This document shows positions 2,867 through 42,712 of a stretch of DNA of 64,000 nucleotides, one piece after another. The stretch comes from an uncultured Pseudobdellovibrionaceae bacterium (GTDB taxonomy: Bacteria; Bdellovibrionota; Bdellovibrionia; Bdellovibrionales; JAGQZY01). Both the position numbers and the translations under genes were made by a program. How positions within the stretch are numbered: the first letter of the stretch is position 1; each line of letters opens with the position of its first letter. The stretch lies in the NCBI GenBank assembly GCA_964400355.1, contig CAYNTO010000003.1, forward strand, positions 84,706 to 148,705. The letters run 5' to 3'. The notes under the pieces were generated by a model, which saw nothing but the letters and a program-made list of their open reading frames with translations, did no database searches and was not told the DNA's origin.

Positions 2867-3994
2867 TTAAGTTGCAGATTCTTCAGCTGATTTTATGGCG
2901 GTGCCGGCGAACAACGGCTCCAGAGCCAGGTAGGACGCGGCCTCCCCGGTGAACGCCATCTCATTGGCATAATGCTGAGACCCCAAATAAAGAATGTGGT
3001 TTTTGAACAAATCGGGATGATTGGCAACGGCGTGCAGAGCATGACCATACGCCTCGGGAGCCACCACGATAAACTCTTTATGGATGGAATCGTAAAAATT
3101 GGGATACATGCGTTTGATCTGTTTTTTCATTTCTCGAATCGCAAGCCCCAGCTGTTCCGCATCTGCAAAATTTTCGGAGCTCAAAATGCTCAACCACTGC
3201 GATACAGTTTCTCCATCTGTGGTTTTCGAGAAGGCGCCCACACACGGAATATCTTTAGCTCCGTAGAGAACGTGCATCGCCTTTGAATCGGTGAGCTCCG
3301 CCTTGTGCCAATAGGTCAGGTTGACAACAGCCCAGGTTTGCGATTTAGAAACTTTTTGTACCGTGGCTTTCGGGAAATGGGCATTGTCCGTGGGTATAAT
3401 TTTTCCCAGTTTCGCTGCGCTCTCGAAATAATAAATGCGTTCTGTACCGTAGATCTCGGTGCCGTTGGTTTGAATGCCGGCAATGTTGTCTGTGACCTGG
3501 AGCTGGGTGACCTCATGGTTGGTGAGGATTTCGCCGTCGAACTGACTCAAAAGCTTTTGTACAATTTGTGTGAGAGAAATATTGAGCTGGAGCTGATTGG
3601 TTGCGGTAAAGTAGCTGTAAAAATCAATGCCATCTACGGAGTGTGCACCAAAACCCAAAAAGGGTTGCACGGTACCATTCTGAAAAGTCAGCGGGCCTAT
3701 TTCCACCTCTGTCCAATCCAACTCGGGAACATATTTTTTGATGCGCGCTAAAAACTCGATGGTTTGCTCGCTCTCCACAATATAATTCACATGCGTGTCA
3801 ACCCAACGGGGTGGATGTTCGGACGTCTCCAACTCCGCGTCCAGGTTAACGCCGCGATGGAGTCCACCCAGGGTTTCCGAACCGCTAAAAATGGCACCTT
3901 TCAAGCCGCGAGTTGAATTTTCAACCGCCGTAAGAATCGCAGGAAGAGAGTCACCGATGACGACGAAATCGAACTTTTTGTTATTTTTTGCCAT
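2867..3994 (-). CDS. hypothetical protein with degenerate N-terminal dinucleotide-binding (Rossmann-like) motif
   Basis: 375 aa. N-terminus KFDFVVIGDSLPAILTA resembles the beta-alpha-beta FAD/NAD(P) motif, but GxGxxG is degraded to GDSLPA. Starts 10 nt downstream of the preceding gene, so probably co-transcribed. Confidence 0.5.
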   Translation of the reverse strand: MAKNNKKFDFVVIGDSLPAILTAVENSTRGLKGAIFSGSETLGGLHRGVNLDAELETSEHPPRWVDTHVNYIVESEQTIEFLARIKKYVPELDWTEVEIGPLTFQNGTVQPFLGFGAHSVDGIDFYSYFTATNQLQLNISLTQIVQKLLSQFDGEILTNHEVTQLQVTDNIAGIQTNGTEIYGTERIYYFESAAKLGKIIPTDNAHFPKATVQKVSKSQTWAVVNLTYWHKAELTDSKAMHVLYGAKDIPCVGAFSKTTDGETVSQWLSILSSENFADAEQLGLAIREMKKQIKRMYPNFYDSIHKEFIVVAPEAYGHALHAVANHPDLFKNHILYLGSQHYANEMAFTGEAASYLALEPLFAGTAIKSAEESAT

Positions 3995-11127: not shown

Positions 11128-11259
11128 ATGGCATCTAAAACGAACCGCACGAACAAAATCCGCTCCAACAAAAGGACCAAAAAAGGCAAGGTTCGCAAAG
11201 CCGCCAATCGCAATAAAGGCACAACCAAGTCTGCCGCTAAATTGTTCGGCGATAAGTAG
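11128..11259 (+). CDS. small highly basic protein (43 aa), below the ORF-track length cutoff
   Basis: AGGAG 6 nt upstream of the ATG. Translation: MASKTNRTNKIRSNKRTKKGKVRKAANRNKGTTKSAAKLFGDK (16 of 43 Lys/Arg, 1 acidic). Followed 12 nt later by a hairpin plus T-run. Confidence 0.5.
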   Translation: MASKTNRTNKIRSNKRTKKGKVRKAANRNKGTTKSAAKLFGDK

Positions 11260-11271
11260 TCCCATTTAAAG

Positions 11272-11307
11272 AACCGCAGAGTAGAGTTCATTGCTGCGGT
11301 TTTTTTA
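11272..11307 (+). terminator. intrinsic terminator (possibly bidirectional, between convergent genes)
   Basis: AACCGCAG...CTGCGGTT 8-bp stem (14-nt loop) followed by TTTTTTT. Confidence 0.55.
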
Positions 11308-37144: not shown

Positions 37145-38818
37145 CTAAAAAGACTGAACTGAATATTCAAAAGTGCTAGGACTTAAACCAGTGCTCGTCA
37201 TGTTGAGCGTTGCGCTCGTAGAGGGAGTCGACGATTTTATGTAAAAATAGGCGCCACTTTTACCAGATCCAATGGACCGAGACATGGACGATGCCGCAGT
37301 GTCGGTGCAGGTGGCGGTTGCGTGAAGCACCGGGGAAGAGCTATTGATCAGTAAAGCGACGCTGTTAGCGGAACTATTAATGAGGTGTGCACCATCAGAA
37401 TTTTTAAGATGCACCATAAACGGTCCTTCACAGCGGCCCAAAGCAAGTGTTCGTGCGCCAACGATAGAGGTACTGGTAGGGTTGGAGTTACCGAGCGCGT
37501 ACATCGTTAGAAATCCAATAGTAGTTCCGTTCTGCACAACCAGGTTGGAGCGGCCTGCTCCGGGGCCGTAAGGGAATTTAACGTATATAGTCTCCAGAGT
37601 GAGATGACTTTGAGTGGTAATATCGTTTGTACAGCCACTGTCACTATAAACACTGTAGTTGCGTTGAGCACTGCCGGCCGAGTAGTTACTAAAACTGTAG
37701 GGTGCTGTGCTCAACGAATACTGTGCACCACCGAGATCGTGTAGGCTCACTTTGTAAGCGTAGCAGACATCTTTCTGGATGAGCTCTGATCCCAACAGCG
37801 AAAAGGTCTTGTTGCTACTGCTTCTGGGATAGATAGACCAGTACGCATTTTGAGACGAAGAGAAAAAAGCGGGTACCAATGATGCCGTATCAGGAACCAT
37901 CTGGAGCTTGTAAGCGGTTTCTACGGTGGGATCGATTTTCATCCAGCGAGTGGTCGTTTCCACTCCGGCCAAAACAGAAAAGCTGCTCGATCCACTCATA
38001 CTATCGACACAATCGGCTGCCGACGAGTAAGTTTCGATAGGTTCATTGCCGCCAGCTTCTAATAGGCGTTTGGTCTGAACCACACTGTCAGAGGTCAGTG
38101 GCTTGTTTTTCCAGAAGATATTTTTTGGCGTCACATGAAAAGGCTCGCACGCATTTGCGCGAAACCGATTCGAAGTGGGAAACGTCTGCTTGTCGACATA
38201 CAGGACCGCTGCAGCTGCATCGGTGTCTCCGCTAATTTCCCCGTTCGTCACACCATATTTGAGGCACTGATCGACCCAGTTCTGTGGTTCCAACGTTGTG
38301 GGTATGGCAATCTCTTGTGTATTGCCAGAGCCGAGGGAGCGGTTGAGAACACTGCCAATGAGATAGGCGTTAGAAGAGGTTACAGTTTTGATATTCAGTG
38401 AATAAAACGATACCCCGTATTGCCGACACCCCAGTGGCGGGACACTTTTCGTACCAAAAAGATAAAAGTGGCGGTTGTCACCGACCGGTACATCCATTTG
38501 AATCACGGAGTTTTGGCCTTTTTCGATACCGCCGACAAGCAAACCCGCCGAAATGGCATTGCTCAGGTCGCCGTTAGCCATCTTTTGGCCACACGCCATC
38601 GTGTTCATGTAGTCCTCTGGACCACCTACGAGTACGTAGTAACAGTTGATCTCATTAAGATTTGTCGGTTCGGAGGTGGATGTACTTTGAGTGAAGGCTT
38701 TATCCGCTTGGATCCGGATGCTTACCGGAATGGTTTCCCCTTTTTTCCGTGCGCACGCCAAGAGAACGATGAAAAGGGGGGAAAGTAGAAGAATATTTTT
38801 AAATGCAGATGGTTTCAT
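37145..38818 (-). CDS. large hypothetical lipoprotein (Ser/Thr-rich)
   Basis: 557 aa from ATG 38818. MKPSAFKNILLLSPLFIVLLAC lipobox. The track's 38908 start would run across the upstream terminator. Confidence 0.6.
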   Translation of the reverse strand: MKPSAFKNILLLSPLFIVLLACARKKGETIPVSIRIQADKAFTQSTSTSEPTNLNEINCYYVLVGGPEDYMNTMACGQKMANGDLSNAISAGLLVGGIEKGQNSVIQMDVPVGDNRHFYLFGTKSVPPLGCRQYGVSFYSLNIKTVTSSNAYLIGSVLNRSLGSGNTQEIAIPTTLEPQNWVDQCLKYGVTNGEISGDTDAAAAVLYVDKQTFPTSNRFRANACEPFHVTPKNIFWKNKPLTSDSVVQTKRLLEAGGNEPIETYSSAADCVDSMSGSSSFSVLAGVETTTRWMKIDPTVETAYKLQMVPDTASLVPAFFSSSQNAYWSIYPRSSSNKTFSLLGSELIQKDVCYAYKVSLHDLGGAQYSLSTAPYSFSNYSAGSAQRNYSVYSDSGCTNDITTQSHLTLETIYVKFPYGPGAGRSNLVVQNGTTIGFLTMYALGNSNPTSTSIVGARTLALGRCEGPFMVHLKNSDGAHLINSSANSVALLINSSSPVLHATATCTDTAASSMSRSIGSGKSGAYFYIKSSTPSTSATLNMTSTGLSPSTFEYSVQSF

Positions 38819-38913: not shown

Positions 38914-38950
38914 TAAAAAAAAAGCCTCTAATTTTGCAATTAGAGGCTTT
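38914..38950 (-). terminator. intrinsic terminator of the poly-Lys micro-ORF
   Basis: Minus strand: AAAGCCTCTAATT-gcaa-AATTAGAGGCTTT (13-bp stem) followed by a run of 10 T. Confidence 0.75.
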
Positions 38951-38976
38951 ACAGATTTCAAATTGAAATCAAAAAA

Positions 38977-39048
38977 CTACTTCTTTTTCTTTTTAGCAGC
39001 TTTTTTCTTACCAGTTTTCTTCTTAGCTGCTTTTTTCTTCTTAGCCAT
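38977..39048 (-). CDS. 23-aa poly-lysine micro-ORF (MAKKKKAAKKKTGKKKAAKKKKK)
   Basis: Perfect SD AAGGAGG (complement of 39054-39060) 5 nt from the ATG. 15 of 23 codons are Lys. Stop TAG, then two hairpins, the second a strong terminator. Below the ORF-track cutoff. Confidence 0.45.
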   Translation of the reverse strand: MAKKKKAAKKKTGKKKAAKKKKK

Positions 39049-39201
39049 TGATGCCTCCTTGGATGCATTAGTTATTGTTGTTACTATTGTTGTCACTAAT
39101 GCTTTCAGTTTACTCATGTGACTATATTCGTCAATAGGAAATTATAACTTTAGTACTTTTTTTGAATATTGATCGATTTTTTATTTGGAAAGGTGCTGTT
39201 A

Positions 39202-39945
39202 ATGAATTTTTTTGTGCAAATGTTCGGAATTTGCATCGGATATTTCGTAATTCGAAACTTTCAGCGACAATTTTTTATTCCATCATCGATAATGACAAAA
39301 ATTGTCAGCGGTTTTTTCTTCGTTCAGTGGATCACATTTCACTTTTCGACAAAAATTCTTTCCATAATTGTTTTGAATGTCGTGTATGTGGGTGGAATTC
39401 TCATCGCGCTTTTTATTTTTCATAAACGACGGGAGATTCAATTCCAGCGCGGCTTTCCGGACATTCTTACGGCGATGATTCTGCAAATGAAAATTGGAAA
39501 GTCGTTTCGCGTGAGCTTCCAAAACGCGCTCACCACGCTGCCCGAGTACCAGCGGGAGACATTAAGGAAAATCCAACAGAATGTGGCTTTTTTGCCACAA
39601 ATGACGGACAAAAAAATGACGAGAGATCGATCATTTCGCGCATTTTTGCTGCAAGAATTCTTAAAAATCGATCAATCACAGCACAAAACGATCGAAAAAC
39701 TGGAAAATTTTCGCGGCAGGTTAATTATTGCCAATAATTTCCGACGTAGGTCCGGCCGGATACGCGAAAATATCTACGTTCAGGTGGGTATTATGGGATT
39801 TTTTTATGTCGCGGCGTTTGTATATGTCATCACGACGATGAATTTTGCCGCTGTCCGCGATGTGATTTTGATGTCGATGACACTTTTCGTGCTGGGTTTA
39901 TTGGGTGCAATCGCTTTGGGTAGGAAAATAAAATGGACGCTATAG
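39202..39945 (+). CDS. TadB-like inner-membrane protein (single T2SS-F domain)
   Basis: 247 aa from ATG 39202 (AAGGTG 6 nt upstream; the track's TTG 39169 is less likely). FPDILTAMILQMKIGKSFRVSFQNAL and the C-terminal FRRRSGRIRENIYVQVGIMGFFYVAAF match the GspF/TadB-C domain pattern. Confidence 0.55.
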   Translation: MNFFVQMFGICIGYFVIRNFQRQFFIPSSIMTKIVSGFFFVQWITFHFSTKILSIIVLNVVYVGGILIALFIFHKRREIQFQRGFPDILTAMILQMKIGKSFRVSFQNALTTLPEYQRETLRKIQQNVAFLPQMTDKKMTRDRSFRAFLLQEFLKIDQSQHKTIEKLENFRGRLIIANNFRRRSGRIRENIYVQVGIMGFFYVAAFVYVITTMNFAAVRDVILMSMTLFVLGLLGAIALGRKIKWTL

Positions 39946-40367
39946 CTTCGCCATATATATTTGTTGAGAGTTTGCGCTACGAACTGGAGTCGGGAGGTAC
40001 ACTGTTGCCAATTGTTCGTAACCTTTCACAGGAAATCTCTGGTGAATTTGGTTTGCAGATAGAGCAATGGCTGGCGAATACCCAAACGAATCGCCTCGAA
40101 GTGGGAGAGGTGCAAAAATCCTGGTCACTTTACAGAAAATCCATATTTGATCTGCTAGATATGTCGCGAGCGGGGGTCAGCATCATTGAACCGCTCAAGT
40201 CCATGGAGAAAGAGATGCTACAAATATGCGAAAACGATCTGCAACGCCATTTGGATCGCTTACCTTTTAAATTAATGGTTCCCATGCTGTTTTTCCAGTT
40301 TCCCGGTGTGATGCTATTAATTGTGGGGCCACTGATGGTGCAGTTTTTTACGGAGATAGGGTCATGA
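39933..40367 (+). CDS. TadC-like minimal T2SS-F domain protein
   Basis: 144 aa. LLDMSRAGVSIIEPLKSMEKEM...RHLDRLPFKLMVPMLFFQFPGVMLLIVGPLMV matches the T2SS-F C-terminal pattern. Overlaps the upstream gene by 13 nt. Confidence 0.5.
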   Translation: MDAIASPYIFVESLRYELESGGTLLPIVRNLSQEISGEFGLQIEQWLANTQTNRLEVGEVQKSWSLYRKSIFDLLDMSRAGVSIIEPLKSMEKEMLQICENDLQRHLDRLPFKLMVPMLFFQFPGVMLLIVGPLMVQFFTEIGS

Positions 40368-40846
40368 AACACGCTTTAGCGATTTTTACTGGTTGTATAG
40401 TGCTCATTGTGGTTCAAAAGGCATGGGCACAGGACGACTCTGCAGAAAAGGTGTCGAGTTTACAGAAAAAATGTATGGTGGAGCTTCGCCATCAATTTAT
40501 ACCAAAAAACTGTTATAGATGGGTGGAATTTGCTGCGCTGAGGCCTGAGCGCCGAAAATATCTCCATCAATGGTTTGATTCGGTCTGTAAAAAAGCTCTC
40601 TATAAGAATGAGAGTCTGGTGCAACATCATGTGCACGATCTCTCACAATTTAGCCAAGACTGTCAAAAGCATCTCGAGCTGGCTTTTACCCAGTGGAGCT
40701 ATAAATCTAAATCCGAAAATCCCGAAAAGGTGATCCAACTCATGGTCACAAAGAATGGCAAGGAACTTGAATACAGTTCCGTACATGATCAAAACCAACC
40801 ACGATCGCACAGAAATACTCGAAGTCCTCGGCGAAGGCTTAACTAG
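40364..40846 (+). CDS. hypothetical periplasmic 4-Cys protein
   Basis: 160 aa. ATGA overlap with the upstream gene. Signal MKHALAIFTGCIVLIVVQKAWA; four Cys in the mature part; basic C-terminal tail overlaps the kinase start. Confidence 0.45.
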   Translation: MKHALAIFTGCIVLIVVQKAWAQDDSAEKVSSLQKKCMVELRHQFIPKNCYRWVEFAALRPERRKYLHQWFDSVCKKALYKNESLVQHHVHDLSQFSQDCQKHLELAFTQWSYKSKSENPEKVIQLMVTKNGKELEYSSVHDQNQPRSHRNTRSPRRRLN

Positions 40847-41921
40847 TCGAGTTTACAAAGCTATTAGGAAACACAGTGCGCTCAACGTGCAGCAGGTAGT
40901 GGCGCTAAAGGTCTTGCATTCCCAGGAACTGATCCACTCTCTAAAAAATGAGATCGAACTACTGCTCACGGTAGACTCCCCGAATTGCGTGAAATTGCTG
41001 GGCTGGGAAGAGACAGGTATGGGGCTTGCGTTGGTGCTCGAATTTCTCGATGGGGTTTCCCTCGAAGATCTCTGCCGCTATCGTTCCTTGAGCGCCTTGG
41101 AAGTGGAGGACATAGTCTTTCAAATTCAAGAAGGCCTAAAAGAACTTCACAAAAAAGGCATCATTCACGGTGATCTAAGTCCCAAGAATATTTTTGTGAC
41201 TACTTCGGGACAAATTAAAATCATCGATTTCGGCTTTAGCACTCGAGAACAAAAACCTTGCGAGTTTGCCACACCCAACTGTATGGCACTCGAAGCCTGG
41301 GCAGGCCGAGCCCTTACGCCTTCTTCAGATTTGTTTTCGCTGGGTTTACTCCGTGAGACACTGCTCAATGACGAAGCGTCGATAAATTTTAAAAACTGGA
41401 AGCTCCGTGCAGAGAATTTAAAAAATAAAAATGTTTTGTTGTGTGAAGACCCCAATGATCGCATGTTTATGGAGCTCACTGCTCAAATTTCGGAGCGCAC
41501 CAAAATTGGTAAATACGTCAGCGAGATGATGCGCTGGCGTCAGCAGCAGCAACCGACCATTAAACTACAATCCTCTTTGAATGTTGGAGTGGGGGTGGGT
41601 TGTCCTGTTTACAAACGCGTTATTTTTTGGTGTTTGGCACTTATAGCTTCCGCATCCGTCTCTGCAGTGGCTTATGTTCCGTCGACGACAGATCTCCAGT
41701 CCTCATATTCATTAGACATGCGTGCTCCGGTTTGGGTCAAAACAAAACTCTATCGGCGGAGCGCCGGGCAACAATGGCTTTACCATGAAGGCTATGTGCC
41801 AATTGTCATCTCAACACTGCCATCTGGCGACTACGTACTGAGCTGGACATCGGAAAAAAAATCGGGGATGATAAATCTACAAATGCATGAAAACAGAAAA
41901 ATCGTTTTTGATGCGCAATAA
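40785..41921 (+). CDS. membrane Ser/Thr protein kinase (Hanks-type, non-RD) with C-terminal PEGA-like domain
   Basis: About 378 aa. Gly-loop LGEGLTSRVYKA, VALKVL Lys, catalytic HGDLSPKN, IIDFG, TM VIFWCLALIASASVSAVAYV, then a beta-rich tail with LPSGDYVLSW. Start is 40785 or 40755. Confidence 0.82.
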   Translation: MIKTNHDRTEILEVLGEGLTSRVYKAIRKHSALNVQQVVALKVLHSQELIHSLKNEIELLLTVDSPNCVKLLGWEETGMGLALVLEFLDGVSLEDLCRYRSLSALEVEDIVFQIQEGLKELHKKGIIHGDLSPKNIFVTTSGQIKIIDFGFSTREQKPCEFATPNCMALEAWAGRALTPSSDLFSLGLLRETLLNDEASINFKNWKLRAENLKNKNVLLCEDPNDRMFMELTAQISERTKIGKYVSEMMRWRQQQQPTIKLQSSLNVGVGVGCPVYKRVIFWCLALIASASVSAVAYVPSTTDLQSSYSLDMRAPVWVKTKLYRRSAGQQWLYHEGYVPIVISTLPSGDYVLSWTSEKKSGMINLQMHENRKIVFDAQ

Positions 41922-41941: not shown

Positions 41942-42712
41942 ATTTCATTTTTACAAGCCATCATTTTGGGAATCGTTCAGGGAATCACCGAGTTTTTACC
42001 TATCTCCAGTGATGGTCATTTAGTTCTTTTTCAAAAATTTTTTTCTATGGATTCAGGCACTTTAACTCTGAACATTATTCTTCATTTTGGCACTTTGTTG
42101 GCGGTGATTATCTACTTTTGGAAAGATCTGGTAAAGGTTATCGATTGGAGATTTATTAAGCTTGGCGTAGTCGCCTCTGTGCCAACCGCAGTGATTGGAC
42201 TGATTATTAAAGAGCTTTTTGATTTCGATCACGTCGCATTACCAGTAGTTGCCGCTTTTTTTGTATTGTCGGGCTTAGCAATTTATTTGGCCCATCGGAA
42301 GATGTACGGCAAATCCTATGCACCATTTTCAGTGGAGACAATGTACGCTGAAATTAACTATAAATATGCGTTTTTGATCGGCGTGGCGCAGGGCCTAGCA
42401 GCACTTCCAGGCTTGAGCCGCTCGGGGAGTACCATTGCTGTCGCAGTGTTGTGCTCAGTTTCGGGACCATCTGCTCTCTTTTTTAGTTTTGCGATCTCTA
42501 TTCCAGCAATTGCCGGTGCTGTGGCCCTCGAGTTAAAAGACGCTATTATCGCTCCGGAACACATCCCAGTGTATGGTGTTGGCGCTTTTACCGCATTTGT
42601 CGTGGGTATGGTTTGCTTGGCGGTAATGAGATACTTGTTTTCGGGCCGCGCGCGGCTCGATTTTTTTAGTTACTATCTTTGGGCACTTGCGGTAGTGCTC
42701 TGTATTATTTAA
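41942..42712 (+). CDS. uppP: undecaprenyl-diphosphatase (BacA/UppP); start codon unresolved
   Basis: LQAIILGIVQGITEFLPISSDGHL is the UppP N-terminal signature. The conserved residues FLQAII lie upstream of the only canonical start (TTG 41966). ATT at 41942 has GGAGAG 5 nt upstream. Confidence 0.8.
   Translation: MSFLQAIILGIVQGITEFLPISSDGHLVLFQKFFSMDSGTLTLNIILHFGTLLAVIIYFWKDLVKVIDWRFIKLGVVASVPTAVIGLIIKELFDFDHVALPVVAAFFVLSGLAIYLAHRKMYGKSYAPFSVETMYAEINYKYAFLIGVAQGLAALPGLSRSGSTIAVAVLCSVSGPSALFFSFAISIPAIAGAVALELKDAIIAPEHIPVYGVGAFTAFVVGMVCLAVMRYLFSGRARLDFFSYYLWALAVVLCII

Follow-up and report, generated by a model that had tools for sequence, protein, structure and literature searches.

The 64,000-nucleotide stretch of Pseudobdellovibrionaceae DNA analysed here (the window; contig CAYNTO010000003.1) carries on its minus strand a micro-gene whose open reading frame (ORF), MAKKKKAAKKKTGKKKAAKKKKK, encodes a peptide of 23 residues, 15 of which are lysine, with a net charge of about +15. 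In the reading that we favour on balance, the product of this gene is probably an abundantly made, cytoplasmic polycation that would bind nucleic acids without sequence specificity. A preliminary description, made from the letters of the window, had proposed that the ORF and its flanking signals make up a self-contained functional gene and are not noise, and the comparison of 11 orthologous loci strongly bears this out. All of the elements that it had listed were found on the minus strand, with the promoter coordinates displaced by 1 nt. Low-complexity micro-ORFs are commonly filtered out as noise, yet they can rank among the most constrained sequences of a genome.

The peptide is composed almost exclusively of K, A, T and G in the layout KKKK-AA-KKK-TG-KKK-AA-KKKKK, that is, a periodicity of KKK followed by two small residues, beyond which no position-specific motif was seen. 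The predicted transcript is about 185 nt long, running from about 39100 to about 38915, and its minimum free energy of -49.8 kcal/mol was not reached by any of 200 shuffled sequences (-35.0 +/- 4.0 kcal/mol; z = -3.7). Taken alone the consensus scans are weak, as they gave three promoter-like sites where 1.8 were expected and four terminator-like sites where 1.0 was expected; it is conservation, and not these scans, that lifts the observation above chance.

Conservation of the unit and selection on its reading frame

The 11 loci comprise the window and ten others from Pseudobdellovibrionaceae-type genomes, collected with the divergent neighbour gene (39202-39945) as anchor. L004, L005, L006, L007, L135, L138 and L139 were derived from this anchor, L130 and L132 came from metagenomes, and L040 was recovered independently by a DNA-pattern scan; a metagenome scan with a profile of the neighbour protein yielded four loci only. 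Eighteen protein relatives of the neighbour gene were found, one of them in a Bdellovibrionaceae/Pseudobdellovibrionaceae metagenome-assembled genome (MAG), and the micro-gene adjoins the neighbour divergently in all 11 loci, down to a neighbour protein identity of 25%. The lipoprotein gene downstream of the micro-gene (37145-38818) was dropped as a synteny anchor, since a search of 5.8 billion proteins gave it no more than two relatives, one of them from the window's own genome, and the ortholog contigs stop at the micro-gene terminator. Below, seven sequences are referred to as the close group and L139, L130, L132 and L040 as the distant four.

In the close group the pairwise differences per site were 0.020 in the promoter, 0.033 in the 5' stem-loop, 0.062 in the SD (Shine-Dalgarno) linker, 0.084 in the ORF, 0.085 in the post-stop hairpin and 0.187 in the terminator, and they leapt to 0.693 in the 20 nt past the T-run. 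From promoter to terminator, six relatives share 93-98% of their nucleotides with the window, while their neighbour gene shows 70-83% nucleotide and 57-78% protein identity and its 4-fold degenerate sites, at 48-65% identity, are near saturation. By these comparisons the micro-gene is conserved much more strongly than the genes around it and is a discrete unit under strong purifying selection, bounded by its promoter and terminator. The distance from the -35 hexamer to the ATG is 86 nt in nine of the 11 loci, even where the sequence of the untranslated region (UTR) differs.

The predicted RNA structure is conserved as well. The 5' stem is retained in eight loci, with L139 keeping the stem around an 11-nt loop and L132 having another hairpin in the same place. 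The post-stop stem is identical in nine loci, in which the loops vary, and 87% of the alignment cells of this hairpin are paired; in L040 a different hairpin takes this place, and L132 has a weak 5-bp stem that was seen by eye and is absent from the fold of that locus. The terminator is present in all 11 loci, its stem occurring in at least four sequence versions with compensatory changes. When the alignment of the 11 sequences was folded into the three hairpins of the window, 90% of the hairpin cells paired and seven pairs were altered on both sides; the covariation score, which is to be read with the caveat that the imposed structure was taken from the window sequence, was reached by none of 500 shuffles, and sliding the partners lowered pairing to 25-54%.

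An in-frame ATG at 39117, absent from that description, would extend the ORF to 46 aa (amino acids). Since this extension is broken by a TAG in L007-L009 and the ATG behind the SD is the sole conserved one, the latter is the start and not the ATG at 39117; neither the 46-aa version nor the IDH gene was matched in exact look-ups. The peptides of the ten other orthologs have lengths of 22, 22, 23, 22, 28, 28, 25, 25, 28 and 25 aa, all insertions and deletions being in frame. In L132, L040, L130 and L139 lysine is replaced by arginine through multi-base changes (AARKKK in L040, ATRKKAAKKR in L132). Over all pairs, 292 codon differences were synonymous and 131 non-synonymous, although of the single-base changes open to a Lys codon only about one in nine leaves the amino acid unchanged. 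In the distant orthologs, in which the neighbour protein is 25-43% identical, the SD, ATG, frame, basic ORF and terminator persist and the 5' UTR sequence diverges. These patterns show that the peptide sequence is selected at the protein level.

The arrangement of the lysine codons also departs from chance. The longest A-run in the window ORF is 6 nt, and across the 90 distinct polylysine micro-ORFs listed the summed longest A-run was 442, against 548.8 +/- 13.3 when AAA and AAG were permuted; none of 1000 permutations was as low, and the maximum run among these ORFs was 9. Sliding of ribosomes on A-stretches has been described (PMC4363877), and the short A-runs fit selection against it.

Only one ortholog was found annotated, in L138 at 3781-3942 (GCA_020635085.1, H6623_02340), as a 53-aa "hypothetical protein". 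Its annotated start is wrong: it begins at an upstream, non-conserved ATG, its residues 1-23 being translated 5' UTR, and a homologue search with this 53-aa version recovered only itself. In addition, several Logan contigs of relatives break off inside or beside the micro-gene (L002 at 1-30, L003 at 1), and position 1 of the contigs L134, L136 and L137 lies 62 nt upstream of the neighbour gene. Such breaks fit a collapse of the assembly graph on a segment that is near-identical among co-occurring species.

Table 1. Position of the micro-gene elements and of the adjoining divergent features in the window
Feature	Position	Strand	Basis and conservation
-35 hexamer TTGACG	39129-39134	-	Consensus scan; invariant in 11/11 orthologous loci
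-10 hexamer TAAACT, spacer 16 nt	39107-39112	-	Consensus scan; retained in 10/11 orthologs
5'-terminal stem-loop, 8-bp stem GCATTAGT/ACTAATGC (arms 39102-39095 and 39072-39065; A/C-rich loop of 22 nt)	39065-39102	-	Folding; conservation
SD AAGGAGG, 5-nt spacer to ATG	39054-39060	-	Sequence; core AGGAGG invariant in 11/11 orthologs
ORF MAKKKKAAKKKTGKKKAAKKKKK, 23 codons + TAG (ATG at 39048, TAG at 38979-38977)	38977-39048	-	Translation
Post-stop hairpin GATTTC(A)-loop-(T)GAAATC, 6 nt past the stop codon	38954-38970	-	Folding
Intrinsic terminator, 13-bp stem (38950-38921), GCAA loop, T-run to 38915	38915-38950	-	Terminator scan
Shared divergent control region (includes TATAAT 39146-39141 and TAAAG 39155-39151)	39135-39201		Conserved in close orthologs
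247-aa membrane protein gene, first of the divergent operon	39202-39945	+	Linkage in 11 loci

A possible wider class of oligolysine micro-ORFs

Similar ORFs were sought with a degenerate DNA scan (pattern ATGGCNAARAARAARAARGCNGCNAARAAR, one genome per species), which returned at least 120 stretches, all from MAG records, where by our own estimate about 0.004 random matches were expected in the entire collection; the survey by its design selects for the MAKKKKAAKK motif. At least 88 matches were complete ORFs of 11-51 aa, which correspond to at least 61 distinct peptides, on average 63% K+R, at loci of 29-73% GC. An SD core stood at -18 to -4 in 67% of these micro-ORFs and in 9.8% of random windows, and a terminator-like element followed within 130 nt in 80% of them, compared with 14% of random windows. 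The matches listed came from Planctomycetota, Verrucomicrobiota (including Udaeobacter), Patescibacteria, Methylomirabilota, Acidobacteriota, Gemmatimonadota, Bdellovibrionota and a few archaea. One of them, L090, a MAG record titled Phycisphaera mikurensis, carries MAKKKKAAKKAATKKTAKKKSK, and two Acidobacteriota genomes each have two tandem copies of a 14-aa form, MAKKKKAAKKAKKR, 243 nt apart (L069 7310-7582 and L094 5815-6100).

The other matches listed were the N-termini of longer proteins, many of which are Lys/Ala repeat proteins of 70-270 aa. The tiny ORFs and the Lys/Ala-repeat proteins with the same ten first residues form a length continuum. L014, L051, L071, L046, L107, L043 and L056 encode KKKxA-repeat proteins of 49-271 aa that open with MAKKKKAAKK. 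A viral scan gave seven matches, mostly N-termini of long proteins, and no link to phages.

The neighbours of the micro-ORFs are lineage-specific, as judged from 158 flanking ORFs surveyed among the matches listed, with SecA, MurB, DFP (CoaBC-type), LysA and M16 peptidases recurring. In Patescibacteria (L025, L027, L073, L092, L034, L084, L028 and L033) the micro-ORF lies between murB and hpf/secA, an arrangement which, being found across very divergent lineages, suggests an old and vertically kept synteny. The neighbour is DFP (CoaBC-type) in Udaeobacter and a convergent rpmB in Methylomirabilota. One planctomycete clade (L011, L053, L106 and L117) has a true lysA downstream (TIGR01048, 459 bits), and in another (L016, L044, L072 and L096) a divergent dapB lies beside the micro-gene.

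None of ten sampled peptides was found by exact look-up in a collection of 15 billion proteins. In the searchable literature MAKKKK was not printed in a bacterial context and strings of the KKKKAAKK type were not printed at all, nor did topic searches on such peptides find anything. We tentatively propose, with less confidence than we have in the nature of the product itself, that the locus is a member of a widespread and unannotated class of oligolysine micro-proteins, genetically encoded polycations of 11-50 aa that typically start with MAKKKK and occur in Bdellovibrionota, Planctomycetota, Verrucomicrobiota, Patescibacteria, Methylomirabilota, Acidobacteriota and others. Such proteins would be a peptide counterpart of polyamines and protamines, or would form a new component attached to the ribosome or the nucleoid, and the Pseudobdellovibrionaceae member, with its ultraconserved structured leader, may have an added function at the RNA level. 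If the peptide is made, several poorly studied phyla would contain an abundant polycation that is invisible to annotation pipelines, and a component would be added to models of what ribosomes contain or of how nucleoids are compacted, along with a simple, testable candidate.

Nature of the product

According to the explanation that we favour, the micro-gene would be independently transcribed, monocistronic and efficiently translated, and its selected product would be the oligolysine peptide of 22-28 residues. The anatomy of the unit points to high expression from a stable and heavily translated messenger RNA (mRNA). The 5' stem-loop begins 4-5 nt past the -10 hexamer, a distance that would make it the 5'-terminal element of the RNA, where it might protect against 5'-end-dependent decay; bacterial mRNAs are known to gain stability from hairpins in this position. 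Likewise, the G-poor, A/C-rich leader and the consensus SD with its 5-nt spacer would serve output, the interleaved Lys codons would prevent slippery A-runs, and a spacer hairpin after the stop would precede a strong intrinsic terminator, these roles being assigned from general knowledge of bacterial mRNAs. The peptide, with its charge of about +15, would remain in the cytoplasm and bind polyanions (RNA, ribosomes or DNA), neutralising their charge and compacting or stabilising them. The peptide lacks a signal sequence, and this, together with the lack of a position-specific motif, makes non-specific binding of cytoplasmic polyanions most likely.

Like the chlamydial H1-like proteins Hc1/Hc2, AlgP-type repeat proteins and protamines, the peptide is a Lys/Ala-rich, repetitive basic sequence with a pentad-like periodicity, and its MAKKKKAAKK start is common to the KA-repeat proteins of 70-270 aa. 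Condensation of nucleic acids is the expected activity of Lys/Ala-rich H1-like proteins and protamines, and compaction of the nucleoid is a known puzzle both in attack-phase cells of Bdellovibrio and in Planctomycetes. Unlike H1-like proteins, which measure about 100 aa or more, the peptide has 22-28 aa in all 11 orthologs, is 4-10 times shorter, has no folded domain and is the product of one small transcription unit whose leader is ultraconserved. The continuum with H1-like Lys/Ala repeats and the occurrence in lineages with compact nucleoids speak for a role in the nucleoid or on nucleic acids in general. The Lys/Ala-rich nucleic-acid-condensing peptide suggested in the preliminary description is compatible with all observations and has become the leading explanation, with DNA as one putative target.

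Several points weigh against this explanation. Searches of Pfam, NCBIfam and PDB sequences with the peptides gave no match at E <= 10, low complexity limiting the power of such searches, and no common functional partner across phyla emerged from the 158 flanking ORFs. The similarity across phyla may be due to convergence, and a freely diffusing peptide of charge +15 could be toxic if unregulated. Furthermore, the loop of the 5' UTR is conserved beyond what a stability element needs, and its near-invariance hints at an additional function of the RNA.

The main rival to a non-specific polycation is a stoichiometric ribosomal micro-protein, an analogue of bS22, eL41 and mS38 seated in a specific pocket of the ribosomal RNA (rRNA), which we regard as possible though not probable. 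Among documented proteins these three are the nearest in kind to the peptide, and the pocket of bS22 is the one that h2, h27, h44 and h45 form in the 30S subunit. It was shown that bS22, a protein of 30-33 aa that was discovered solely by cryo-electron microscopy, contains 61% K/R in Borrelia, where it had been unannotated, and its authors likened it to eL41 and mS38 and predicted that more such proteins exist (PMC10618245). With a length of 22-28 aa and a basic content of 65% the peptide resembles bS22 as well as eL41 (25 aa, 68% K/R by our own count of its sequence), and its 15 lysines in 23 residues agree with a description of bS22 as about 30 aa with more than 60% Lys/Arg. Like these proteins of about 25-33 residues and 60-70% Lys/Arg, it is encoded by a tiny gene that pipelines overlook; they bind RNA electrostatically (PMC10618245). 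Genes of the translation apparatus typically combine a strong SD and a strong terminator with a nucleotide sequence that is very highly conserved, as is the case here, and some weak context comes from the adjoining rpmB in Methylomirabilota and from the position upstream of hpf/secA in Patescibacteria. On the other hand, the length and the residues of the middle of the peptide vary freely within one family, while bS22 is nearly invariant across Borrelia (PMC10618245), and the His, Met and Leu positions of bS22 are missing. No similarity to bS22 sequences was detectable, tblastn of the window with bS22 and eL41 as queries returned nothing beyond noise due to composition, genes for ribosomal proteins were not generally enriched among the neighbours of the at least 88 micro-ORFs, and family members of 11-13 aa are apparently too short for an rRNA pocket.

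It is also conceivable, but unlikely, that the transcript acts mainly as a regulatory or dual-function RNA, with the A-R-N loop and the U-tail docking an Hfq-like protein or pairing with targets and the peptide being secondary. The loop of the window contains seven A-R-N triplets in an unbroken series, runs of 7-10 successive triplets occur in the seven close orthologs, and the 5' stem-loop varies little (0.033 differences per site) where 4-fold sites are saturated; the 3' end consists of two hairpins and a U-tail. No Rfam family matched the transcript at the gathering threshold, the best being Yfr10 with 32 bits against a threshold of 43, and all sub-threshold matches fall on the terminator region. 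No hfq signature was found within the 64-kb window. Only 2-3 triplets remain in L139, L130, L132 and L040, where the A-R-N loop is lost and the SD, ATG and basic ORF persist, and the substitution patterns indicate selection at the amino-acid level. The proposal of a small RNA (sRNA) with an incidental ORF was rejected as worded, since the distant orthologs differ in the sequence of the 5' UTR and keep the SD, the ATG, the frame and the basic composition. Like the dual-function RNAs SgrS/SgrT and SR1/SR1P, the predicted transcript, about 185 nt in length, has a conserved structured 5' part ahead of a small ORF and ends in a terminator; it differs from them in that the distant orthologs keep the ORF and not the structured 5' part. 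The near-invariant loop of the close relatives leaves room for an added role of the RNA.

A polylysine ORF was found in none of eight published attack-phase sRNAs of B. bacteriovorus. One of these, APsRNA5 (176 nt), was considered as an ortholog and rejected, the small protein that it encodes being unrelated. In abundance APsRNA5 ranks second among the attack-phase "sRNAs" of strain HD100 (PMC3627812, supplementary Figure S1), and with an SD and an ORF beginning MAKKHVVRKEY it may itself be a small-protein mRNA.

Polylysine peptides are membrane-active, and export or release of this one as an antimicrobial, or as an effector that a predatory bacterium directs at its prey, has to be weighed against an intracellular polycation. 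The toxic or antimicrobial reading of the preliminary description is kept as a rival, although we consider it quite improbable. The host lineage is Bdellovibrio-like, the micro-gene is constantly paired with a membrane-protein/kinase operon, and a candidate FliA-like attack-phase motif may overlap its promoter. However, the peptide is without a signal peptide, no transporter, maturation or immunity gene is adjacent, and near-alike micro-genes occur in the non-predatory phyla Planctomycetota, Verrucomicrobiota, Patescibacteria and Methylomirabilota.

Control of the downstream gene by a lysine-sensing leader peptide is very improbable. Like the trpL, hisL and pheL leaders, the unit combines a short ORF rich in the codons of one amino acid (15 Lys codons) with hairpins and an intrinsic terminator, a same-strand gene follows 96 nt further on, and in some Planctomycetota a similar ORF directly precedes the true lysA or lies beside dapB. 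Unlike those leaders, it has neither an antiterminator nor a conserved biosynthetic gene downstream, and its peptide sequence is itself selected. The downstream gene is a lipoprotein gene in the window, DUF2007 in L006 and a 51-aa ORF in L138, and it is convergent in L007 and L135. Neither the folds nor the 11-locus comparison revealed an upstream segment complementary to the terminator; the stem of the latter alters independently of the invariant sequence upstream, with no alternative pairing kept, which leaves no room for a conserved antiterminator. The lysine codons are arranged in favour of smooth translation. In the lysA-linked copies a strong predicted hairpin, read by eye, seems to be the micro-gene's own terminator, and TTGCA...TATACT before lysA looks, also by eye, like a separate promoter. 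The suggested leader for the lipoprotein gene was consequently abandoned, that protein having two relatives only, the downstream gene changing from locus to locus and an antiterminator being absent.

Finally, a real gene on the plus strand for a hydrophobic, type-I-toxin-like peptide (LKSKNYFFFFLAAFF..., 38963-39121), of which the polylysine frame would be the mirror image, was rejected as scarcely credible: its 52-aa ORF is open in nine of 11 orthologs and a weak ohsC_RNA match lies on that strand (E = 6.7), but AAR codons read backwards give an open antisense frame automatically, the ORF has a TTG start only and no SD, it is missing in L138 and L130, and the conserved promoter, SD and terminator all face the minus-strand direction.

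Divergent operon and control region

Between the micro-gene and the divergent operon lies a control region in which TAAAG-N16-ACGAAT (39155-39124, minus strand) overlaps the sigma-70-like -35 hexamer, its -35-like part being TAAAG or TCAAG in most orthologs. It resembles the published FliA attack-phase consensus of B. bacteriovorus, TTAAG-N16-CCGATA, and is thus a candidate FliA-like motif. The preliminary description had called the divergent genes a TadB/C-kinase operon. Its kinase was confirmed, as the operon ends with a Ser/Thr kinase gene (40755-41921) and UppP/BacA (41966-42712), both identified by Pfam, but the TadB/C label was not supported. The first genes of the operon (39202-40846, plus strand) had no Pfam or NCBIfam match, and the AlphaFold2 model of the "TadB-like" neighbour was of low confidence (predicted local distance difference test score, pLDDT, of 66) and had no meaningful Foldseek match; a single JGI record gives the name TadB to a 45%-identical relative.

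The window also holds a second stand-alone gene for a small basic protein, which had no Pfam or NCBIfam match. It encodes 43 aa, MASKTNRTNKIRSNKRTKKGKVRKAANRNKGTTKSAAKLFGDK, at 11129-11260 on the plus strand, is preceded by the SD TAGGAGAA and has its own hairpin and T-run, with the terminator at about 11271-11300.

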